Source: Leucoraja erinacea
Taxonomy: Eukaryota
NCBI RefSeq assembly: GCF_028641065.1
Contig: NC_073399.1
Location: forward strand, 30,256,001-30,320,000
DNA length: 64,000 bases
Reading direction: 5' to 3'
The position numbers and the translations under genes are program-made. The notes beneath the pieces are model-generated. The model was not told the origin of the DNA and searched no databases. It was given only the letters and a program-made list of their open reading frames with translations. Shown one piece after another: positions 19,351 through 34,032 of this stretch. Each line of letters starts with the position of its first letter. Within the stretch, counting starts at the first letter, position 1.

Positions 19351-21918
19351 TAGGCCAACTTGCAATAGGTAACAAATGACCAACTGCTAAAATCACCAAA
19401 ATTACAAAATATATAAAAATTTGGAATCAGGGACCAAAGGTTTATTGTCATGTATAGTATGGTATGCAAATGAAAATCGGTAATTGATTGAAGCAAAGTT
19501 ACTGTAAATAAAAGCTTTTTAAACACTACAAAAAATAACAAAATAAAAGTTCAGAAGTTAATTCAACATCTTAAAGCTAATTTAGTGAATAAAACAAGTA
19601 ATTTGATGTCTAATGCATGAAGCAACTTCATAGGTACTACAGCATTCAATGGATTTCCATTTAAAACAGACAATTAAATAAATTGACAAACAGCAAAAAA
19701 TTACTTCCAAAAAGCAGGGGGGGGGGCGCGAGTAAAAGGGCGCAGTCAATGGGAAAAGAAACGATTACCAAGGGAATAACAAAAAAGCAATAAAAGAAGA
19801 GTCAGAAGAGTGTATGTGGAAATTGAATTACAGGAACTAGGGTCAAAAATCACTTTCGCAAGCCCAGAGCACTACAAAAAAAACAAATGCTGATTCTTTA
19901 AAAACAAAATTACCTCTATAAACAAGGGCTCCCCTGGTTGGCTTTGCCATTTAACGTCATTGGGGATCCGCTGTGTGATATCAATTTCTTTTCTCTGCCC
20001 GATTCCCATGATCCTTGATTCAACAATCATCCAAAAATCTCAACGTGTAAAAACACATAACTTTGATATTTTGACATTGGGTGAACATAAATATCAACCT
20101 TAACAGCAGTGATATTCCAAATTGATTTTACTTCATTGCCACCTTTTACGATTTGGTGTGCCTCAATGCCATTGCACCGTGTTTAGTATGAAAGTGTAAC
20201 TGTAGAAGTTGATAAAGCAGTTGGCCCCGAATTAAAATTTTAGTTTCATTACCAAGAACGATTACAATAATGGTTTGCATTAAAAGTACGACTTTAATGG
20301 AATCAAATAAAAATTCATATGGTTGGACATCTAATTAGGTTTTCCGTCATTTCTGTCCAGGCTGCAACAAAATAGTGCAGCATTTTTATTTAAATTAAAT
20401 TAGAAGAGGTAGACTAGTGAAGAAACTCAATTTCACATTCTAACAAAATGGTCTTGAGCAAAAACAGCACCATTGTTTTCCCTTCAGAAGTAAACAGGTT
20501 TCTACTGCAGAATGTCATTCTTTTCCCCCATTTGAATTCCTTTCAGAATAACATTTATCATCAGCAGCAGCTTTTACCTACCATTAAACTTCAGACAGCA
20601 AGGCACTTCGCAAGAGTCAGATTGGGAGCAGAACTGGACTGCAACAGGGCTCACGAGCCCTCCAAAGGCTAAAACCCTTCTGCAGCTATTGTTACAGAAA
20701 CTTATCAGGATTCGAAAAATTAAAGGTTAAGCCCACTACAAAACAATGTATTCATGCAACATCATCTTTAGCTGGTTGTGTTATTGCAGCAGTGAACAAC
20801 CGTTTGTAATTGAATAAGGAGGGCGATTTAAAAAAATCAAATATGGGGAGAAGACATTTGCAAGCACAACTTGGAAGAAACAATAAATGAAAATAAATCA
20901 TAAAAACTAGATACAAATATATTACTTTAGGCAATCTTAATATTTTGAGAGATTATAGTCAAGTCTTCATACCCCTCCAGCTCCTCAAGTGGTTCACTCC
21001 CAACACTGCTGATGGCCCACATTGTCATCTCAATGTCCACACATGACCTCCATAAAATAAATGAAATGAACTATAACCTTGCAGGTTTTTTTAAATTAGC
21101 TGCTTTTCCTCAAACATGATTGTGGATGGCATAATGAATTGTCTTATGAAGTTCTTGTGGCTCATGCATGAAATAGTCAGATTGCATTTTGGGATCGGGA
21201 CTATACTGTAATTTCAACTGTTATGTTCATTCAGCTCTTCCACTGCTTAACACAATAACATCTCCTCTGCTAAATAGGGGAAAAAACATACATGTTAAAA
21301 CTGGCCATCAGGATTGTTTGCTTCATGAAAGAATAGTCCCAGAGGAAATGTCTTAGCTTTTCACGGATGCAAAGGGGCAGGTTGAAAAAAAGGGCAGTTA
21401 CAAGTATCACTGGAAGTTGAAGATTTCAGTTGGGCTCAGCATCTTGTAAATTCTCTGTCAGTTATCACAATTCACCAAAGAAGTGATCAAAAGTTACCAA
21501 ATCAAAAATAACCAAATACAGTAATAATTGGTCAGCAATATTGTTTAGTAATTTCCCATATTGAATAGGCATTCAGAAATGCAAGGAAAGCCAGCTTCTG
21601 TTAAGTGAAGAGCAGTGAAAAGGCTAACATCAACAAACAAATGGTTTCAACAGTATAGTATATTGCTAATGCAAAAAAAAAAAAAACAACCTTTTCCAAT
21701 AAATTGATTTCTCCTGTACCTGACAATTAAATTAACTTGCATCAAGAATGATTTCCATTTATTAACAATAGTCCAATACAAATCACCCTGATTTGTTCGA
21801 TGATAATTATACATTCTTTCTATATTACTCAGTAATTAGCCTATTTATATATGCAAATTAATCTCAATATAATAGCATCACTTAAATCTATATACTCACT
21901 TTGGTGCCATTTACCACT

Positions 21919-22207
21919 TCACGGTGATTCAATTCCATCTTTCTGTGGAGATGTTGAATTAATTGGTGTCTTGGATCTGGATTTAGACTTTGACCCATGA
22001 GACATCCGAGATATACTTCTAGATCGTGACCTGGACCTCGATCTTGACCTTGATTTTGACTTGGACCGCGATCTTTCAATGGATCTAGATTTGGAACGGG
22101 ATCTAGATCGGGTAAACGAACGAGATCGGGACCTGCTGTAACGAGATCTTGACCTACTTCGGCTTTTACTTCTGGATCTGGTATGCGATCGACGGCGTCT
22201 TCTGGGA
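21919..22207 (-). CDS. SRSF2: SRSF2 coding exon 2 (RS domain)
   Basis: (S)[26 protein letters not shown]...stop; acceptor ttag| at 22208; phase matches exon 1. Confidence 0.96.
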
Positions 22208-23557
22208 CTAATTTGAGTGACAAAACAGGGCAGAAGCAAGGGAAAATTAAGTACGAAACATTGACAAACAATAAATTAACAGAATTCATCTCCCATCTCT
22301 TATAAATATAGCTCCAAGGTGACCATTCATTAGTGCACTTGTCCGGATAATCTGTCTGTACATTAAGCAAATGAAGTACAGGTGGAAAATCCAACCACGG
22401 TGTAAATATTAATTACAAACATTTACTTATTTTCATCCTAAATTTCACACGTGTATTGGCCAATTGCTTATGTTGCTGAATAATGTACTATCTTTCTCCA
22501 ACACAGTGACAGTTCATGATGCACATGATCAACAAAATAAATGATTTTCACTTCCCCATGGTAACTGGGACAGGAAAACTGTAGAGTAAATTATTACAAC
22601 CATGGGAGTTTCCTTGTTTGAATACAATCTAATAATGATCTGAGACTTTGTGGATTTCTTGAATACAAAACATAAAGAAAATATACATTTTAAATCACCC
22701 ACTTGTATCTTCGAGATCATTGGAATGGTAGTAAGCATACCATCCCTCCATCAGGAATTACACAGAATGGAATACATCAACACAAATAAATGCGATGAAG
22801 AAAAAAGTGTGCGTGCCCCTTCCTTGCTAAAGAGTTACAGACCAGTAAAATGGAAAATGATTAAATAAAAACAGCCACTGAAATAAATATACTTTTCCCC
22901 CAAAACAAAATTTAAACACCTAACTCATGTTGGACAACAAATTAAAGGATTAAAACTCAATATTTTTCTATTGTAGTCAACTTTCCCTCCAGTCCCAAAG
23001 CTTCATCTTCCCACCAAATAGCCAGAACTTTATCTTCCCACTAAATAGTTAATTACGAGAATAATACTACTTTTAAACAAAGCACACGAGCATTACTAGC
23101 TCAGTGTAAAAGTCACACCACGAATAACATTGCAGACGGAGGGAGCACACACTTATCACGACAAATGAAACAAAATATCAAATTTCAATATCTAAAGAGG
23201 CGTCTGTGATAACAATGCCTCCCCCACATTGGCGTTTATGAGACGGCGCAATAAAGATGAAAAAAACATTAAGTAGAAAAGTCTCGGAGATCGCTCAAAA
23301 ACACAACACTTTTTGTCTAGGCTGGAAGTTAATATCACACCAATGCCTCTTCAGGCTTGCCATGGATACAATCTATTGAATACGCATCCCTCGTTTTAAG
23401 TCGGGACCCTTCTTCAGAAAGAATAACACTTAAGATCCGTAACTTTCTATCAACGTTCTGCCTAAAAAAGCAAATGTAACCTCATGCTCAGAATCCCTAC
23501 AGAAATAGTCAAACACAGAAACAAGCCAGTTGGTCGAAGTCCTGGCAACATCCTTAT

Positions 23558-24449
23558 AGGGAGGTTTCACGGCAGTCGGGTCACGACCCATGACCTGTAC
23601 TATTGCTACGCTACGCCAAATGGAGTACACGCGATGAACTGCAGGTAAGCACTTATCATTGTTTCCAGCGTAGCGGGCCCATTAAAACCCGCCGAAATGG
23701 TCAATTTTTGCGCCGTAAATAATTATGGAAGTCGGGGTACATGTGAGAGACATGTCCCCAACTTCAGAATTCCAAAAGTGAAGCGAAATGTAGGTAAATA
23801 GAAGCGAGAGCTGAAGGGACAACAGCAGCTAAAGTGCTTGGTAAACATTGGCCGTGCAGATATCGGAATTGAAAATACTGGGAATTATCGTGTTTGCTCA
23901 CTGCATTTCATCAACAGTAAGGCATTATTTGTGTTTTTTCTTGATTCCTTTGATATCTAAAAAGTCTCAGAAGTGATAAATCTGACTGTAAATTTTTCTT
24001 CAGATGCGTTTTCATTTTGTATGTAAAAACCCACTTGAGAACCATGGGCGATTAAAAAAATTTACAGCCAGATTTATCACTTCTGAAACTTTTTAGATGC
24101 CAAAGGAAGAAAAAACACAAATAATGCCTTAGTTGATGAAATGCAGTGAGCAAACGGCCAATGTTCGCTAAGCACTGTCTGTTGTTGTCCCTTCAGCTCT
24201 CACTTCTATCTACCGTCATTTCTCCTCACTTTTGGAATTCTGAAGTAGGCTAAATGTCTCACACGCTTATCCCGATTTCCATAATTATTTACAGCACAAA
24301 AATTGACATTTTCGGCGGGTTTTAACGGGCCCGCTACGCTGGAAACAGTGTTAAGTGCCTACCTGCGGCTCATCGCGTGTACTCTATTTAGAGTAGCGTA
24401 GCAACAGTACGGGTCATGGGTCGTGACCCGACTGCCGCGAAACCTCCCT
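23558..24449. mobile_element. Palindromic ISL2EU-like non-autonomous DNA transposon in SRSF2 intron 1
   Basis: AT|AGGGAGGTTTC...GAAACCTCCCT|AT; ~400-bp inverted arms; decayed THAP ORF at 23697-23916 (MVNFCAV...FRIPKV...RVCSLHF). Confidence 0.8.
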
Positions 24450-24574
24450 ATTCTCAAATTGATGTAGGCCAGTGTGACCAAAGATCTTATAGCTTTGAGT
24501 GTGACAGAATCCTTCACTACCCTATCTACTTGCGATCCATTTTCAGGGAACCATGTACCTGTACTCAAGAGATC

Positions 24575-24850
24575 CCTTCCCCTCCCCCCCCCCCTCCCTC
24601 CCCAATCCCTCCACCCAACTCCCCCCCCTCAATCACTCCACTCCCCATCCCCCCTCTCAATCTTTCCACTCCCCTTTCCCCAATCCCCCCCCACCCAACT
24701 CCCCCTCAATCACTCCACTCCCCCCCCCCCCTCCTCCTCCTCAATCCCCAATCCCTCCACCCAACTCCCCCTCAATCACTCCCCTCCCCCCCCTCAATCC
24801 CTCCACTCCCTTTCCCCCAATCCCTCCACCTCACCCTCCCTCACCCCTAG
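24575..24850. repeat. C-rich minisatellite-like tract (G-rich on the SRSF2 transcript)
   Basis: Recurring CCCTCAATC(A/C)CTCCA units. Confidence 0.85.
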
Positions 24851-24868
24851 GGAGGGGGTGCCACCCAC

Positions 24869-25221
24869 CTGCGGCTTCTCCGGCCGTAGGCGCCGGCGTG
24901 CCGACGGGACGACCCACCGCGGCGGTGCGACTCGGCGGGGCGACCGTAGCGGGCCATCTGGACGCGGAGCTCCCTGCCGTCGAGCACGGCGCCGTCCATG
25001 GCGTCGATGGCATCCTCGGCGTCCCTCTTGTCGTGGAAGCGGACGAAGGCGAAGCCGCGGCTCTCGCGGGTGAAGCGGTCGCGGGGGATGTAGACGTCGC
25101 CCACCTTGCCGTACTTCTCGAACACCCGCTTCAGCGTCTCGGGCGACGTGCGGTACGTCAGGTTGTCCACTTTCAGCGAGGTCATCCCCTCGATGTCCGG
25201 CGGCATCCTCCCGTAACTCAT
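24869..25221 (-). CDS. SRSF2: SRSF2 coding exon 1 (RRM)
   Basis: [30 protein letters not shown]...RGFAFVRF...[12 protein letters not shown]; donor AG|GTGGGT at 24868. Confidence 0.98.
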
Positions 25222-25797
25222 GTTGGCGTTATTGAATAATAATAACAACACACACACACACACACAAACCGCCGCCCGGCCCGAACACAATCACAAGATG
25301 GCGCCGCCTCAACCCGGAAACACACCCCGGCTCTGACCCCATCAGCCCCAAATAACAAATAAAAACACATTTTTATCAATTCTATGAACCCATTCCATCA
25401 TTATATTCACTGTTATACATCTCTTTCATTTCGAAACTTCAAAATTAAATCACTTAGAGCGAAATGCATTCTGGGTATTGTAGTTCGCCTTTTTTCTTTT
25501 TGACTTTCCTTTCGATTTTTTTAATAAAACGGCAAACGTTACAACAAACCGTTTACCGCCAGCGTATTAAATGCAATTGTAAGTGCCGCGGGGTAAAGGC
25601 ATAAAGCAGCGGTTGTCGGTCGGGCTGATACGCATGCGCGTGTCACTTCCGGTGGCAGTGAGAGAGTGAAGACGTTTAATTGTTGAGAGAAACATCAAAC
25701 TTCAGCGGCCGCGACCCAGACCCCAGGGTCCGGACTCCAGACCCCCCCAGACACCAGACTCAAGACCCCCCAGGCCCAGGACCACCAAGACCCAGCC
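25222..25797. promoter_or_regulatory. Bidirectional promoter/5'UTRs of SRSF2 and MFSD11
   Basis: YY1 CAAGATGGCGCC 25294-25305; ZNF143/SBS-type TGCATTCTGGGTATTGTAGT 25465-25484; NRF1-like CGCATGCGCG 25631-25640; ETS/GABP CACTTCCGG 25644-25652. Confidence 0.85.
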
Positions 25798-25893
25798 ATG
25801 ACGCCCGAAACAAGGAAATTAACCAATGTCATCATTCTGGGCTGCTCTTTTATGTTCGTTTTCACTGCGTTTCAAACCTGTGGGAACATTGAG
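25798..25893 (+). CDS. MFSD11: MFSD11 coding exon 1 (UNC-93-like MFS protein)
   Basis: MTPETRKLTNVIILGCSFMFVFTAFQTCGNIE; gccATG, |gtgagt donor. Confidence 0.95.
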
Positions 25894-25997
25894 GTGAGTG
25901 CTCACGGCCCGGACTTTAACCGTGGCTGCAGCTGTCACTAATACAACATATTGTTTAAGAAGGAACTGTGCAGATGCTGGAAAACCGAAAGTAGACA

Positions 25998-27200
25998 AAA
26001 GTTAGCAATGTCACCAAATTTTGAGATTTTAAATCAAGTCTGTAATTTATCCTATCAGATAAAGCTTAAAACCGAGATGAGAAGAACTTTTTTCACACAG
26101 AGTGGTGAATCTCTGGAACTCTCTGCCACAGAGGGTAGTTGAGGCCAGTTCATTGGCTATATTTAAGAGGGAGTTAGATGTGGCCCTTGTAGCTAAGGGG
26201 ATCAGGGGGTATGGAGAGAAGGCAGGTACGGGATACTGAGTTGGATGATCAGCCATGATCATATTGAATGGCGGTGCAGGCTCGAAGGGCCGAATGGCCT
26301 ACTCCTGCACCTATTTCTATGTTTCTATGTTTCTAAAAAGAAGTTTAATTTGATAACTAATTCACTTTCATATCTTCAGTATTAAAAAGGTTATGGCCAT
26401 TTTCATACTCTGAAATTAGCATCTTGTTCCCTATTGCTTTTCCATTGACTTAACTCAAAAGCTGTGATCGAGGACAGTCAAAAGCCTGTAAAATTACGAG
26501 AACTGAATGAAATTTTCAGTTACTATAGATTGAAGCATTCAAAAACAAATGTAAAACAATCTTACTTGGATGAACTGAAATTAAAGCATATAATTAGTTA
26601 GTTACCTAATTGTAGCTAATTACAAAATTCAATTACTGGATCTAAACATCTATCCATTTCTTAAGAAAAGGTTAGCATTTTTAAATAGCCTAAGTGTCCA
26701 AATAACATTCACACAAGAATTCACAATATAACATGATTTTTAAATTTCATTGTCATGAATTTATAGGCCTAATGGAAGGAATTTAGTGTTTAATTCCCGT
26801 AAATTAATGGCCATTTTAATCATCTTGCGAGTGGGTTTTTGTAGAACGCTATCGATTCGAATGTTGCGGTTGCGGTGAATTTAAACCCCAAATCGGCAGG
26901 AAAATCACTGCCGGTTCGTATATTTACATAATCACATATTTGCTGATGAAATTTCGATTAAAGTAATCCTAAGAAGCAAGTTTATATGTAAAATAAACGA
27001 CTTGCCTTATGTTTTGTCCCGGACGTGAGATCCGTTCCGTTGCCTGCGTTAGAAGTAGCTTTTTATTTTACTCCAGCGCTGAAATTGTCCCGCTGTTTAA
27101 AAAAAATAATTCGGAGAACGGCAGTCGGAACGATTGTTCAGCATTGGGTAGTAACCTGAGAAAATATATCTCGGACAGGCAGGAGAAAACGGCATTTTAA
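25998..27200. mobile_element. AT-rich unclassified repeat, probably a DNA transposon, interrupted by a CR1 tail (26066-26333, +)
   Basis: atcagataaagc|CR1|taaaaagaagtttaatttga; a related degraded copy at ~39970-40610 is uninterrupted at this junction. Confidence 0.55.
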
Positions 27201-27291
27201 TTCATTCGGACTGAAGACTAATACAACATAGTAGTGCTGATCAACCATAGTACAATGTTGAATAAAGTATAAGTGGTGCTGATAAACTAAA

Positions 27292-27668
27292 ATACATAGA
27301 AAATAGGTGCGGGACTAAGTAGGCCATTTGTCCCTTCGAGCCAGCGCCGCCATTCAATGTAATCATGGCTGATCATCCACAATCAGTACTCCGTTCCTGC
27401 CTTCTCCCCATGTCCCTTGATTCCGCTAGCCCCAAGAATATCTAACTCTCTTTTGAATGCATCAAGTAAATCGGCCTCCACTGCCTTCTGAGGCAGAGAA
27501 TTCCACAAATTTACAACTCTCTGGGTGAAAAAGTGTTTCCTAATCTCAGTTCTAAATGGCCTACCCCTTCTTAAACTGTGGCCCCGAGTTTTGGACTCCC
27601 CCAACATCAGGAACATGTTTCCTGCATCTAGCGTGTCCAATCCCTTAATAATTAAAAATGTTTCTATA
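27292..27668 (-). mobile_element. CR1/HER1 3' fragment
   Basis: FFTQRVVNLWNSLPQKAVEA...; catagaaa tail. Confidence 0.9.
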
Positions 27669-27669
27669 G

Positions 27670-28200
27670 GACGCCAGGACGCATGTCTGTGAGCGGATGG
27701 CGGGCCACATCTATCACGTGTACATATGGATCCCGCCCCGAATGGCAGGCATCAAATCGCGTGTTCACATAGATCCTGCTCCTTCAAGGACAGCATCCGG
27801 AGCACTGGCCCCTAGTTACGGGTGCTCATGAACATGGCGCACCTATGAACCATTGCCTTGGCACTGTCCTGAAGGCAGTGGCTCCAATACTCACACTCAC
27901 TCGTCCCCAGCCTATTGACAACCCCAATCCCAGAGTGAAGCCCAGTCACAGAAGGTGTGCAGCTGTGCCTGCGGCTTTGCGCAGGATGTGGTATAGCCAG
28001 CTCGGCGCTCGGTAGCTCCGCCATTGCGGCAGCTAGTGTGGGCCTCCTTGAGATTGCACCTGGGTGTCGGGCTCGGGAGGTACCAGAGATGATGGAAGAC
28101 TGCGGGCCGAATGATTACAGAAAAAAAATACGCCAGCGGGTCGGCTAACTTCAGGTTATGGGCTGCATTCGGCCCGGGGGCCGTAGGTTGCCGACCCCCG
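27670..28200. mobile_element. hAT-type MITE fragment (right end)
   Basis: Ends ...gggccgtaggttgccgacccccg, resembling CAGGGGTCGGCAACCT hAT TIRs; left end not found. Confidence 0.55.
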
Positions 28201-28355
28201 GAGTAAAGGATAGTGGCATTGATACATTGTAGTGGAATATAGAATACAACAGAGTGGTGCTGCAACTATATTTCATTATAAAATAAAGAATAATATTGCT
28301 GATAAACTACATTACAATAATGAAGAAGTGATAGTGGATTTGATATTGATTAGTA

Positions 28356-28975
28356 GGACTGGATGTTACAATCCCGAAGGTTCTTCACCATAACTGACAC
28401 CCAGTATTCTTGGGGGTGACCACTAGGTGATTTTGCTACCAATCAGACACATCTTCAGTTGTGTACCTCAACGTCACTGGGTGTTTCGGCCTTTTATCAC
28501 AAGACACCCTTAGTCGAGGCACGCCCACCGCAGGGTGATGAGACCTGGGTGTGTGTCTTGTGGTTAGCCTCTAGATGGTCATGTGACAGCCCAGACAGCA
28601 TCTTTTCTCTTCAGCCACAGCCAGTGACTGCTCCATTCTGCTTTTTTCCTTCCATCCTCCTCTCTACCGCTGACTGTGGCTGGTTGGGCTCTGGACTTGG
28701 GTCCGTTGGTGGGACAGTACTTGGTTGAGCTTCGCCTGGGGTGCTGATACCCTGTGGATTCTGGTGGTTAACCTGCCACTGGGCTTCACTCGACTGATTT
28801 GGCCTACCTCTTAGAAGGTAATGGTCAATGCGAGGCCTCACACCAAGCTCTCCCAGGCACTTTTCCCTGCCCTGGTGGATCTTGAGACCCTTCTCTGATG
28901 TTATCTTTTCCCAGCCACAGATGCAGTTTCGTAGCTTATGTCCTGCCGGGGCTGCTGCTCTGTCCATGGCTATGC
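28356..28975 (-). mobile_element. Hero-like (R2 group) non-LTR element, internally deleted
   Basis: N-terminal zinc finger CICGWEKITSEKGLKIHQGREKCL joined directly to 3'UTR-like sequence; TAGTA at 28351-28355 and 28976-28980. Confidence 0.7.
28445..28509 (-). ncRNA. Candidate permuted/pseudoknotted hammerhead ribozyme
   Basis: GGGUGU-C-UUGUG-auaaaa-GGCC-GAAACACCC-15nt-CACAA-CUGAAGA-UGUGUCU; stems III (6 bp) and I (5 bp) perfect and in register. Confidence 0.6.
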
Positions 28976-29025
28976 TAGTATAATATAGAATGTAGGATAG
29001 TGGTGCTGATAAACCACAGTACAAT

Positions 29026-29901
29026 AGGGAGGTTTCACAGCAGTCGGGTCACGACCCATGACCCGTACTGTTGCTACGCTACTCCAAATGGATTACACGT
29101 GATGTACTACAGGTAGGCACTTACCATTGTTTCCAGCGTAGCGGGCCCGTTAAAACCCGCTGAAATTGTCAATTTTTGCGCTGTAAATAATTATGGAAAT
29201 CGGGATAAGCGTGAGAGACATTTAGCCTACTTCAGAATTCCAAAAGTGAGGAGAAATGACGGTAGATAGAAACGAGAGCTGAAGGGGTCAATAACAGACA
29301 GAGTGCTTGGCGAACATTGGCCGTTTGCTCACTGCATTTCATCAAGTAAGGCATTATTTGTGTTTTTTCTTGATTCCTTTGGTATCTAAAAATTCTCAGA
29401 AGTGATAAATCTGGCTGTAAATTTTTCTTCAGATGCGTTTTCATTTTGTATGTAAAAACCCACGAGAACCATGGGCGATTAAAAAAAAATTACAGCCAGA
29501 TTTATCACTTCTGAAACTTTTTAGATACCAAAGGAATCAAGAAAAAACACAAATAATGCCTTACTTGATGAAATGCAGTGAGCAAACGTGATAATTCCCA
29601 ATATTTTCAATGTTTACCAAGCACTTTAGCTGCTGTAGTCCCTTCAGTTCTCGCTTCTCTATACCTTCATTTCGCTTCACGTTTGGAATTCAGAAGTTGG
29701 GTACATGTCTCTCACACTTACCCCGACTCCCACAATATTTTTCAGCGTAAAATTCAACATTTTGGCGGTTTGTAACAGGTAGGAAAGTACGCGTTTCTAG
29801 CATTAATAACATATACCGGAAGTGACGGGTGTCTTCCAGTTGGATTTAGCGGCTCCGTGCGTCGAGCCCTATGACCCAGTGACCTTCCTTGCAACCCCCC
29901 T
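29026..29901. mobile_element. Second ISL2EU-like element, partly palindromic, distinct right end
   Basis: AT|AGGGAGGTTTC...GCAACCCCCCT|AT; highly similar to 23558-24449. Confidence 0.8.
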
Positions 29902-29902
29902 A

Positions 29903-30112
29903 TATAGAATAAAACAGTGTGAGTGATAAACCATATTGCAATATAAAATAAAAGATAGTGTTGAAATTCTGTATTACAATAAGGAATAAAAGATATTGTT
30001 GCTAATAAACTACATTACAATATTAAATAAAGGATAGTGTTGCTGATAAGTTATATTACAATAACAAATAAAGCATAGTGATGTTGATAAACTGTATTAG
30101 AAAAAAAGAATA
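29903..30112. repeat. AT-rich degenerate tandem repeat (ATAGTGNTGCTGATAAACNATATTACAAT...)
   Basis: The same unit recurs at 27215-27291, 28205-28350 and 28976-29025, split by later insertions. Confidence 0.75.
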
Positions 30113-31349
30113 AACCAGCATCTACATTTTCTAATCTCCCTGTAGATGCTGCATGACCCGCTAAGTTGCTCTGCACTTTGTGATTTGCTTACAATTCTAG
30201 CATCTGTAGACTCTTGACTCCAAAAAAGCCGACTTAACATGTCAGGTCAAAAATTTGTCATCAGACCAGGTCTTCGCACTGATGCCGTGTGATCAGCTGG
30301 TTATGTTTTACCTGTTTCTGCTGAATTTTGCATAGAGTTTGAACATAAATATTATGGGGAATAATTGGTGGGACCAGTGTTTTTTTACCAGACATATATC
30401 TGATTTGAAGTTCTACATTTTGATATGTGCTGATAGTGAAGTAACAAAATGAAATTACTTATAAATTATAATTAAAACACAAAGTGCATGTATAACTCCA
30501 GGATAAGCACTAACTAAGAAAACCAAGCCAAAAACAAAAGAATTATCTAACTAAAGGCAGCAGCTTACAATAAATGACTTCATATGCAAAAGAAAACCCA
30601 GCCAGCTACAGATTACTCCCCCCTTTTTATTTAAAAAAAAAAAAACTAATCCTGTAGATGCAAGTATATAATTGGGGTTATCAAGTGGGCACCTCTCTTC
30701 ATTGGTGTTTCATTGAGTTAAACCCACAGCACCTCAGGCAAGCTCAACAGTTGGTTCTGACAACCCCCTCTCCCACCACCTATGCTATCAGTATCTACTA
30801 AATACAGGAAGCTGCAGCCAATTAGCTCACTCTAACGAATGCTAAACACCTGCATTCTATCTTCCACTAATCCTAGCCCATCATTAAGCTTGTAACACCA
30901 GAAATATCACCTTGCATAAGACTGGGAAACACTTGCACTGACTACAATTACAAAGAAACACACATACTGCATGTCATACGTTTCCTTTCTGCCCCCAACT
31001 GACACTATTTCTTCACCACCAAATCCACCTACTGCCTTGCTCTGCTGCCTCTGACATTTGCTTTACAGCCTGATACAAACTCTGTCCGCAAATTCCTAGG
31101 TCTCCAACTAGCTATGCGGATGATCTTGCTATGAAACCTCTACAACCCACCTCTACCATCCTTGCTGCTCAACTTCTGCTGCCAACTCTACATATCTAAG
31201 CCATTAAACCTATAATGTAGCTTTCTAATTAGAGAAACTCAAAACTAAGAGAATACTCTGAAGTATAGACTCTTGTAATGTCAGAACAGTGAGCACATTT
31301 TACCAGTAAATGTTGAATCTAATTCAAAATTTCAAACTATTTGTTTTGA

Positions 31350-31810
31350 CAGAAACATAGAAAATGGCTGATCATCCAAAATCAGTACCCTGTTCTGGCT
31401 TTTTCCCCATGTCCCTTGATCCCCTTAGCCCTGGGAGGTAAATCTAACTCACTCTTGAACACATCCAGTGAATTGGCCTCCACTGCCTTTTGTGGCAGAG
31501 AATTCCACAGATTCACAACTCTCTGGGTGAAACCGTTTTTCCTCATCTCAGTCCTAAATGGCCTACCCCTTATTCTTAAAATGTGACCCCCTGGTCCTGG
31601 ACTCCCCCAACATAAGGAACATTTTTCCTGCATCTACCATGTCCAATCCTCTAAGAATTTTATATGTTTCTGTAATATTTCCTCTCATCCTTCTAAATTC
31701 CACCGAATACAAGCTGACCCATTCTTTCATCATAGGTCAGTCCCGCCACAGTTATGAAGGCCAACATGCCATTCGCTTTCTTCACTGCCTGCTGTACCTG
31801 CATGCTTACT
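31350..31810 (-). mobile_element. CR1/HER1 3' fragment
   Basis: GFTQRVVNLWNSLPQKAVEANSL...; gaaacatagaaa tail. Confidence 0.88.
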
Positions 31811-32785
31811 GGTAGATTATAACCTCAGAATTGAGAGCATTCATGCCCCTTTCTGCAAGTAATTATTTGCAATTTATGTCAGAAGATTGATTGCAGCAAC
31901 AAAATAACTAACATTCCAGTTCTAGTAAATAACAAGCGCTTGTAAAGAATTATTTCAAAGTAGACCAGTGTCATCTACCAGATACTCCAAAATGCAATGA
32001 CACGGTCACAAGATACAAAGAATTTAGTTGCCAAGTATGTAAGAAAATCCACGGAATGTGATTTGCCGTAGTCATACCAAAAAAGCAGTAAGACACACAA
32101 CTACATAAATATTAACATAAACATCCACCACAGCGTACTGTGATGGAAGGCAATAACGTATTATCTACTTCCTTCCTTTTCTCCCGGGGTCAGGGCAGTC
32201 GAACCATCCGTTGTCGGGGAGATCGAAACTCCAGCAGCCGGCGATCGAAGATCCCTCGTCGGGTCGATAGAAGCTCCTGCAGTTGAAGCTCCCGAAGTCG
32301 ATCCCCCTAACTAAGGGGCTGCGAACTCCACGATGTTAAGCCCGAAGGCACCCGAGGTTGGAGCTCCCAAAAGTCGATCCCCTGCAAAGGGACCACCAGC
32401 TCCACGATGTTAGGCCGCAGTGCGGACGGAGATGCAATATGGAAAAAGCCGCATCTCCGTCGAGGAAAGAGATTTAAAAAAGTTTCCCCCACCCCGCACA
32501 TAATACAAAACTAAAGATACACTAAAACATACATTTTAAAACTAAAAACAACAAAAGAAGAAAAGGACGAGACAGACTGTTGGTGAGGCTGCCATCGTGT
32601 GGCGCCACCCGGTGGGTCACAGTGAGATTGCTGGCTATTGTTCTTTCAGATATCCATGAGGTGTTCTCAAAAGTTCTATTCTGAACAGGATAGTTTTGAA
32701 ACATCAGAATAACTTGTAGAATATATTAATGATCAATGGGAAAGAATGTTTGTTTTAGATTTAAATATTATTTTTTGTTTAACAG

Positions 32786-32841
32786 CAAACCGTCATCAAG
32801 AGCATCAACAGCACACAGTTTCATGGAAGTGGATATACCAG
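32786..32841 (+). CDS. MFSD11: MFSD11 exon 2
   Basis: QTVIKSINSTQFHGSGYT; acag| acceptor, weak donor |gttcct. Confidence 0.9.
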
Positions 32842-34032
32842 GTTCCTTGTTTATTTTCTTCTGTGGAATGATACTGTATGAAGACTTGTGTAACACTGAG
32901 ATAGCAAGCCTACCCTTGCAAATGTTACAAGAGCTAAACAATATGTAGTATACTTTGTAATATTTTATCTATGTTGAGAGTAGGATATGATAACTTGATA
33001 AAGTACAACATTGTTTCTGTTGCAGTTTTAGAACATAGAACAGTGCAGCACATGAACAGGCCCTTTGGCCCACAATGTCTGTGCCGAACATGATGCCAAG
33101 ACCAACCTTTATGTGGCTGCACATAGTCCATATCTCTCTTTTACCTGCTTATCCAAAAGTCCTTTAAATGCCACTATCTACCTCAGCAGTGCGTTCCAGG
33201 CACTCTCCACCCTTGCGCATCTCCTTTAATCTTTGCCCCTCTAATCTTAAAGCTATGCCCTCCAAGTATATGATATTTCCATCCCAGGAATTTAATTTTT
33301 TGACTGAGAATTATGCGCCTCAAATTTATTTACTTGTATCGGGTATTATTTACTTGCAGCAACCTCCAACGTTCCTGTCTTCCTTATCAGCCTGGGCAAT
33401 CCAAGTCTGTCCATCTCTCCCTGTAGCTAATACCCTCCATTCCAGGCATCATTGTGGTAAACCTCCTCTGCACCCTTTGTAGAAATGCCCTTTGTTATAA
33501 ATCTTCATTACACAGTCTTCTGATTAATAGTTTCTTTATTGTTGAAGAAAAACAGTAAGATATTCATCCAATCTTCGTCTCTGACTCGTACACTTTAATC
33601 TTCGTCAAACTCCAGCTTATCGCTTTTAAATGTTAGAAAATTCCTCATGTCTTGGCAAAACTCCACACGGTCGAAGGGTGTTCCTTCTAGCCATGTCGAG
33701 CTCTAAAACTAACAAACTAAGCTTCTGCGCAAGAGAACCCAGCAGCAAACACGCCACCGACTACGTAATAAATCCCACCCACATAATCACTCACTAACCA
33801 AGCCATCTACATTTTCGTCCAAGTCAATAATATATATCACATTTCACAGCGGTATCAGCACAGATCCCTGCGGAACTCCATTAGTCATAAACCTCCGGTC
33901 TGAATATTGTTCTTCCACCACAGACCTGTCTTAAATCAGTATTTAAATATTATTTATTTAAATATTGTAAATGGGGATGCAGTTATTTTTTTAGCAAATT
34001 ATTGTGCTGACATTGATTTATGTTTCTTATAG

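Follow-up and report, generated by a model that had tools for sequence, protein, structure and literature searches.

The window analysed here is a stretch of 64,000 nucleotides from Leucoraja erinacea (RefSeq assembly GCF_028641065.1, contig NC_073399.1, positions 30,256,001 to 30,320,000 of the forward strand). On its minus strand lies a 5′-truncated copy of a Hero-like retrotransposon, and the 3′ untranslated region (UTR) of this copy contains the core boxes of a hammerhead ribozyme in a permuted order. In the minus-strand RNA, the motif reads GGGUGU (28509-28504), C (28503), UUGUG (28502-28498), GAAACACCC (28487-28479), a 15-nt linker, CACAA (28463-28459), CUGAAGA (28458-28452) and UGUGUCU (28451-28445), such that a 6-bp stem III and a 5-bp stem I stand in hammerhead register around GUC, GAAA and CUGAAGA. 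An initial annotation of the stretch had reported these boxes in the non-circularly permuted order [UH]-[GAAA]-[CUGANGA], and every coordinate, as well as the order, is confirmed on the minus strand. That annotation captured the core, but missed the upstream helices A, B, E and D, a kink-turn-like (k-turn-like) element and the terminal repeats of the host element: the conserved structure begins about 55 nt upstream of its coordinates. The parts of the copy are the following; statements on papers cited here by PMC number refer to the portions of their text that were accessible.

28343..28979, minus strand: Hero copy of 637 bp, 5′-truncated, a member of an 849-bp, internally deleted, non-autonomous family
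28641..28979, minus strand: remnant of the N-terminus of the Hero open reading frame (ORF), with a zinc-finger-like CxC...GLKIH motif that is the same in the relatives P0002 and P0007
28579..28623, minus strand: end of the Hero ORF, with its final codons (WLWLKRKDAVWA) and the stop codon
28552..28558, minus strand: strand A (AGACACA), pairing with the strand after CUGANGA to form helix A
28526..28553, minus strand: hairpin B with a conserved loop (CUGAUCA in the family; G>C at 28540 in the window copy)
28521..28525, minus strand: strand E, pairing with the strand before GAAA to form helix E (C>G at 28522 in the window copy)
28513..28520, minus strand: strand D, with its partner at 28472-28465, beyond the k-turn-like element
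28510..28512, minus strand: non-bulged strand of the k-turn-like element (UGA in the family; G>A at 28511 in the window copy)
28503..28509, minus strand: block S, the 5′ strand of stem III and the GUC triplet, assigned from the sequence and by analogy with PMC10085705
between 28503 and 28502, minus strand: predicted cut site, by analogy with PMC10085705
28498..28502, minus strand: stem I strand past the predicted cut, UUGUG
28479..28492, minus strand: block G, from strand E′ to Y11.1 (28488), GAAA and the 3′ strand of stem III
28465..28478, minus strand: 3-nt bulge and GA of the k-turn-like element, then strand D′
28445..28463, minus strand: block C, with CACAA, CUGAAGA, an extra U (28451), G10.1 (28450) and strand A′
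28343..28444, minus strand: 3′ tail to the family end (CCUACUAAUCAAU), which lies about 160 nt beyond the predicted cut

In the window copy, the core is intact, and the mutations relative to the family (28540, 28522 and 28511) fall in the peripheral helices. The counterpart of its tail also precedes the 5′ UTR in full-length copies.

The host element

The copy is 93-96% identical to 39 other scored DNA matches (the best 40 of 831 candidates, at 93-100%). In the 849-bp family, a deletion fuses the N-terminal ORF remnant to the end of the ORF, and other copies extend upstream into a restriction-like endonuclease and a reverse transcriptase (RT), over about 4.8 kb in locus L158. An RPD...ELTVPWE motif in the ORF presumably belongs to the restriction-like endonuclease. 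The architecture of the R2 group, a single ORF with an RT followed by a zinc knuckle and a restriction-like endonuclease (PMC3636483), is found in these elements, with an ORF of 1092 residues in locus L339 and an RVT_1 match in locus L157. Identity to protein relatives goes up to 81-82%, and named proteins of teleost, lamprey, lancelet and bivalve origin are among them. Counted by eye against the supplement of PMC5678591, a family-2 RT stretch shares 74 of 88 residues with HERO-2_DR and a family-1 stretch 49 of 80 with HERO-1_BF. The host element is Hero-like, as annotated, and the high identity of its RT, by eye, to named HERO elements makes it a probable member of the Hero clade of the R2 group, to which HERO-1_BF, HERO-2_DR and HEROTn belong.

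No target specificity was seen for these elements. Target-site duplications were not recognisable either; 11 of 29 copies share 6-8 nt at most between their flanks, and not at junctions. The viral contigs searched yielded neither a Hero relative nor the motif. The family-1 RT (L157:4896-6245) is 78-82% identical to the proteins P0002-P0009, including one from the teleost Cirrhinus; this is high for a cartilaginous-fish host, and horizontal transfer is possible. At nearly the same spot of the tail (unit position ~814-816), an unrelated short element is inserted in L011, L013 and L072. Two family-4 motifs, at G000:C1:85225501 and 85226039, lie 538 bp apart, which suggests another non-autonomous, more-than-unit Hero derivative.

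Conservation of the core across Hero families

The motif constitutes the 3′ UTR of Hero-clade elements in at least four families of this genome and in at least 24 non-redundant versions overall. A metagenome scan, in which stem III and the core were fixed while stems I and II were free, returned at least 118 loci; among the matches listed, 36 were classified by eye as Hero-type, 19 of them with a Hero protein directly upstream and 17 by hidden Markov model. The set of 24 comprises these 36 without three incomplete ones, plus one copy from the skate's own genome, reduced at <90% identity. Fifteen of the 24 are protein-linked, and the tests described below agree on both sets. Mean identity among the 24 versions is 64% (range 50-83%). 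Stem I has at least four pairs in 32 of the 36 Hero-type matches, compared with 0 of 69 matches outside two repeat families (among the matches listed).

Since the metagenome pattern fixed the core, its conservation was checked separately with other searches. A protein-only search of the L. erinacea genome led to a younger second family, in which the motif is present in all 30 fetched copies and fully intact in 20. Likewise, a pattern from which H17, G12 and CUGANGA had been left out matched 1162 times in this genome (control, 1); in 30 of these, fetched from four families, H17 was C or A in all 30, G12-A13 was present in 28 and an exact CUGANGA in 27. The same pattern had 37 matches in a prokaryote collection, of which 36 lack the core and are due to chance; the remaining one, L394, is a true family member. 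Hence, the hammerhead core (C3-U4-G5-A6-N7-G8-A9, G12-A13-A14, A15.1-U16.1, H17) is recovered even when absent from the query. Across the 24 versions, N7 is U (13), A (6), C (4) or G (1) and H17 is C (16), A (5) or U (3), so that, judged from the alignment, variation sits where hammerheads tolerate it.

A less strict descriptor, built from a 5-bp stem I, stem III, the core boxes and G10.1/Y11.1, matches once in the window, and one of 300 dinucleotide shuffles of the window also matches. Standard descriptors do miss the motif, as had been anticipated: an Rfam scan of window positions 24000-34000 at E<=10 found no hammerhead family, and the type-SGC RNAMotif descriptor of Eckert et al. (2023), in our re-implementation of the accessible version, matches 0 of 26 Hero-type motifs. 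This descriptor calls for CUGAUGA(U)G and CGAAA along with two further pairs in stem II (PMC10085705), and the failure of Hero-type motifs to match it explains a miss in RefSeq.

L394 is a 3.5-kb contig of a bacterial metagenome-assembled genome, in which a full Hero-type motif is followed by a CCCTAA-like repeat; it is probably contaminating host DNA. A second, unrelated repeat family with S-G-C order appears at L199, L213, L217, L221, L230, L248, L252, L258, L259, L276, L279, L280 and L290. It has a stem I of 5-8 bp in 11 of 13 cases and a possible 'I' helix of the Eckert type, carries U/A in place of G10.1-C11.1, has no Hero protein nearby and may be the antisense of a coding sequence.

Covarying helices around the core

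Stem I occurs as UUGUG/CACAA, UGAUG/CAUCA, UGUUG/CAACA, UAGUG/CACUA and UAGUU/AACUA among the 24 versions, with compensatory GC/UA/AU changes at pairs 2 and 3, and swapped strands paired as well as cognate ones in 0 of 20000 permutations. In alignment A2, 91.5% of 657 cells pair (slid controls, 37-51%), two-sided changes occur in 17 of 28 pairs, and the covariation is matched by 0 of 500 shuffles. The search patterns fixed stem III, whose pairing therefore provides no covariation.

The situation in stem II is different. The initial annotation had drawn it as an extended, bulged stem of six pairs, which can be drawn but is not conserved: swapped strands pair as well in 15489 of 20000 permutations. 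What is conserved is a single pair, G10.1-Y11.1, in 24 of 24 versions (GC in 13, GU in 11), together with an extra base after CUGANGA in all 24 (U in 22, C in 2), as in the published SGC descriptor. The covariation anticipated among Hero families was thus found for stem I, but not for stem II.

Three further helices connect the core to upstream sequence. In helix A, formed between the strand after CUGANGA and the far-upstream strand A, four of five pairs have changed on both sides, and 0 of 20000 permutations equalled the cognate pairing; in helix D, formed between the linker following stem III and strand D, six of seven do. Helix E, between the strand before GAAA and strand E, appears as GGGUC/GACCC or GGCC/GGCC and has at least four pairs in 25 of 28 sequences; permutations were as good in 2 of 20000 by energy and in 408 of 20000 by run length. 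A long alternative helix between strands A and E was rejected, as it showed no cognate preference (6627 of 20000).

Kink-turns consist of a 3-nt bulge followed by tandem G.A/A.G pairs between two helices. We take the bulge and tandem GA/GA between stem III and helix D to be k-turn-like, as they fit this consensus. Finally, stem I and the stem II side are joined by 3-8 nt across versions, in keeping with the short tether that had been suggested. The 'I' helix, in which the strand preceding stem I′ pairs with the one following stem II, was not encountered across Hero-type motifs, whose corresponding strands have their partners further upstream, in helices D and A.

Taken together, the alignments suggest that some 55 bases upstream of the core are held against it by three covarying helices along with a k-turn-like element. 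Helix D, bent by the k-turn-like element, could form a three-way junction with the tips of stem I and of helix E; this junction might take over the role of the stem I-II contact, and helix E might continue stem II by strand swap. As stem I and helix E are pseudoknots, RNAfold and minimum free energy (MFE) predictions cannot show them, and the MFE z-scores (-2.0, -2.6, -0.9 and -2.5) were not used as evidence. The loop of hairpin B (28542-28536 in the window; CUGAUCA in the family) is strongly conserved among families; apart from G8>C, it looks like a CUGANGA box.

Terminal repeats and copy ends

In copies that reach the start of the 5′ UTR, this start is almost always preceded by the element's own 3′ end (23 of 24 in family 1, 25 of 27 in family 2). 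Family 1 has 46 matches to such a junction (control, 0), with upstream repeats of 13-420 bp, of which 12 extend past the predicted cut. Among copies anchored in the 5′ UTR, 23 cross the junction, one starts there and six start further in for family 1 (30 of 45 fetched); for family 2 (30 of 32 fetched), 25 cross it, two start there and three start inside. In family 2, 13 of 30 upstream repeats run past the predicted cut, two of them by >1460 bp. The whole upstream motif is present in 12 of 46 family-1 and 10 of 30 family-2 copies, autonomous-type copies with the motif at both ends occur at L157, L158 and L342, and the same joint of 3′ end and 5′ UTR is seen in the metagenome locus L284.

Family-1 copies end 160 nt and family-2 copies 88 nt past the predicted cut, and most copies span this site intact. 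Internal junctions are in register (31 of 32 in family 1, 10 of 10 in family 2), whereas genomic 3′ ends are ragged over 0-7 nt (98 in family 1, 45 in family 2) and follow the read-through sequence for a few bases. This combination indicates a template that continues across the apparent ends, either as a circle or as a long concatemer. In family 1, the 5′ ends leave a gap at unit positions 628-685, which was not reproduced in family 2 and was dismissed.

The available sequencing data, assembled contigs of runs guessed to be RNA, were uninformative: contigs of four runs contained no ends or joints at the predicted cut. One deep contig across the site, with a change at G12 and an 11-nt upstream deletion, was a single case and was not used. 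Families 1 and 2 have a motif in common within the first 70 nt of their 5′ UTRs (AAACCAGUG...UGACAACC; L039:1534-1610, L347 just after the junction, and L284), which, lying just 3′ of the proposed priming site on a circular template, may be the protein-binding signal.

A proposed replication cycle and its alternatives

We are confident that a hammerhead-derived RNA is under selection in Hero 3′ UTRs and, from its sequence, consider it likely that this RNA cleaves. Beyond this, we infer a cycle of cleavage, switching, ligation and copying from a circular template, in which the motif would be a type-SGC hammerhead with extra helices. A master copy would bear it twice, with its 3′ end repeated before the 5′ UTR; the window copy, carrying only one motif, could not serve as such. 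A read-through transcript would be cut at both motif copies to release a unit-length RNA. As helices A, E and D and stems III and I link sequence on either side of the cut, the ends of this RNA could re-anneal, and a circle might then be closed, either by the ribozyme itself or by a ligase of the host; full hammerheads ligate efficiently (PMC6155905). The Hero protein would prime reverse transcription at an internal site of the circle, 90-160 nt beyond the cut, and copying for more than one round would regenerate the terminal repeat. Stem II would consist of G10.1-Y11.1 alone, and helices A and E, by taking one base each, would produce an off state that protects the circle. We assign a probability of roughly 0.58 to this whole cycle, from a selected, cutting hammerhead to internally primed copying.

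Several observations weigh against the cycle. With a single pair, stem II is far weaker than in the tested SGC-1 construct, where it has 5 bp (PMC10085705); no sequence of 28 has three or more contiguous pairs there, and a continuation is provided, if at all, by the swapped strand of helix E. By one further pair each, helices A and E can capture G10.1 and Y11.1, which implies either a switch or a core that never forms. The competitors are as well kept as the pair itself: in 28 of 28 sequences, Y11.1 finds a partner in the G of strand E, the C facing G10.1 is at least 90% conserved, and nested folding places G10.1 in helix A. Moreover, the covariation of helix E depends largely on two sequence classes, the k-turn-like GA/GA is intact with flanking helices in just 18 of 24 decayed copies, and the permutation and shuffle controls ignore relatedness, so that the values given above are counts rather than probabilities. 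As for the copy ends, none of 30 copies found with an upstream probe has its 3′ end at the predicted cut, and 5′ ends within 4 nt of it are found in 3 of 46 family-1 copies, without a pile-up, and, at the cut itself, in 0 of 30 family-2 copies. With a circular template, ends would not be expected to pile up at the cut, but they then provide no positive trace of cutting either.

The best-surviving alternative, which we deem improbable, is that cleavage serves 5′ processing: the upstream copy would cut the element out of read-through RNA of the host, perhaps also helping cap-independent translation, the 3′ copy would be off, and the repeats would stem from long linear templates or from end-to-end jumps of the RT. 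The 5′ ribozyme of R2 (PMC13580325, PMC7650587) and ribozyme-aided translation (PMC13725137) are precedents, end-to-end jumping of the R2 RT figures among the titles cited by PMC3636483, the competing helices make an off state plausible, and the three family-1 copies beginning near the cut fit such processing. However, a linear RNA starting at the cut cannot yield the repeats past it (12 of 46 and 13 of 30 copies), and no family-2 copy of 30 starts there. Exact junctions beside ragged 3′ ends also suit a continuous template better than jumps, and linear inheritance alone would be expected to shorten the repeat every generation.

The 3′ UTRs of long interspersed nuclear elements (LINEs) fold into protein-recognition structures. 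Slightly less probable than 5′ processing is the idea that the motif is such a signal for the Hero RT, non-catalytic or a decayed hammerhead, in which helices A and E replace stem II permanently and head-to-tail copies arise without a ribozyme. The missing contiguous stem II (0 of 28 with three pairs), the intact cut site in most copies and the full extension of helices A and E in nearly all families agree with this idea. Yet all core bases are in register across families averaging ~64% identity, with free variation at N7 and H17 only, and a protein site has no reason to mimic this pattern or to hold a non-G at position 17 (no G in 30 copies, albeit from just four families).

Chance resemblance in one decayed repeat copy can practically be dismissed, since, for all its short boxes, imperfect stem II and three peripheral-helix mutations, it is already refuted by the family conservation data; one match in 300 shuffled windows, a stem I of at least four pairs in 0 of 69 other versus 32 of 36 Hero-type matches (among those listed), and covariation reached in 0 of 500 shuffles all speak against it.

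Set out in full, the circular cycle would mean that Hero, a clade of autonomous LINEs in the R2 group that ranges from molluscs and lancelets to fishes, forms circular RNA through a switchable, non-circularly permuted hammerhead and primes reverse transcription inside the circle. The ribozyme would be the first of type SGC in cellular genomes and would combine a strand-swapped stem II with a k-turn routing stem III back to stem I and a four-way-junction switch. For this complete picture, we consider the odds to be even.

If true, permuted hammerheads would move from anonymous environmental RNA to thousands of copies in animal genomes, and a ribozyme architecture would be added that present descriptors miss. 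Hero, which has no promoter source of the rDNA type and, in the accessible accounts, no ribozyme, would gain a testable life cycle. Furthermore, an internally primed circular template in a close relative of R2 would bear on how non-LTR (long terminal repeat) elements retain their 5′ ends, and would be relevant to R2-type genome-writing tools.

Neighbouring features

About 3 kb downstream of the Hero copy, on the same strand, lies an SRSF2-like gene (window 21888-25290, minus strand; RRM_1 match with E 2e-23, RS-rich exon). A long inverted-repeat element resembling a miniature inverted-repeat transposable element, at window 29323-29589, is a source of spurious microRNA matches in Rfam.

Comparison with known systems

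The topology of the motif, which the initial annotation had held to be undescribed, is already published: Eckert et al. (2023) named the order of cleavage-site block, GAAA block and CUGANGA block 'type SGC' (PMC10085705). Five such RNAs cleave in vitro at 0.007-0.13 per min, and in the accessible text type-SGC RNAs come from metatranscriptomes only, with none from genomes of known organisms (PMC10085705). What is new here is the host class and the architecture, together with a probable replication mode of Hero that is unreported in the accessible literature. A literature search for 'type-SGC' returned Eckert et al. alone, a text search of the accessible supplement of PMC10085705 found no 'Hero', 'k-turn' or Hero-type stem, and PMC13725137, in its accessible part, cites permuted hammerheads without a retrotransposon link. 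The available portions of the Hero accounts in PMC7650587, PMC13580325, PMC4640811, PMC3636483 and PMC9004415 mention no ribozyme or terminal repeat, and a link between hammerheads and Hero was not found in the literature searched, which did not include subscription journals, Repbase Reports and Dfam.

Like HRIMA-1 and its variants, the Hero motif has the S-G-C order, all core bases, a 5-bp stem I that is connected to the stem II side by a few nucleotides, and an extra U after CUGANGA. Unlike these type-SGC RNAs, it resides in animal genomic retrotransposons, has a one-pair stem II, and possesses helices A, B, E and D as well as a k-turn-like bend.

As for the proposed life cycle, Penelope elements offer the closest model, since Cervera and de la Pena (2014) proposed a circular template and more-than-unit reverse transcription for them (PMC4209133). 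As in the pseudo-LTR hammerheads of Penelope, the Hero motif lies in the terminal repeat of an autonomous retroelement with head-to-tail partial tandems, and has an unpaired base before stem II (PMC4209133). Penelope elements, however, encode a GIY-YIG endonuclease and carry type I hammerheads, which are often minimal and act as dimers, while Hero combines an RT and a restriction-like endonuclease with an SGC motif that has a full stem III. The 849-bp family, in turn, resembles non-LTR retrozymes in being a non-autonomous hammerhead unit with more-than-unit copies (PMC7229834; bioRxiv 10.64898/2026.07.22.740005). Retrozymes carry type I hammerheads in tandem arrays and have been traced to Penelope elements, whereas the 849-bp family retains parts of the Hero ORF and, among the loci seen, seldom has copies longer than 1.4 units. 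Lastly, R2 belongs to the same group, shares the single ORF with an RT followed by a restriction-like endonuclease, and likewise ties self-cleavage, which is predicted here for Hero, to RNA maturation; by contrast, its ribozyme resembles that of hepatitis delta virus and is present in one copy at the 5′ end, its template is linear and its target is the ribosomal DNA (rDNA).
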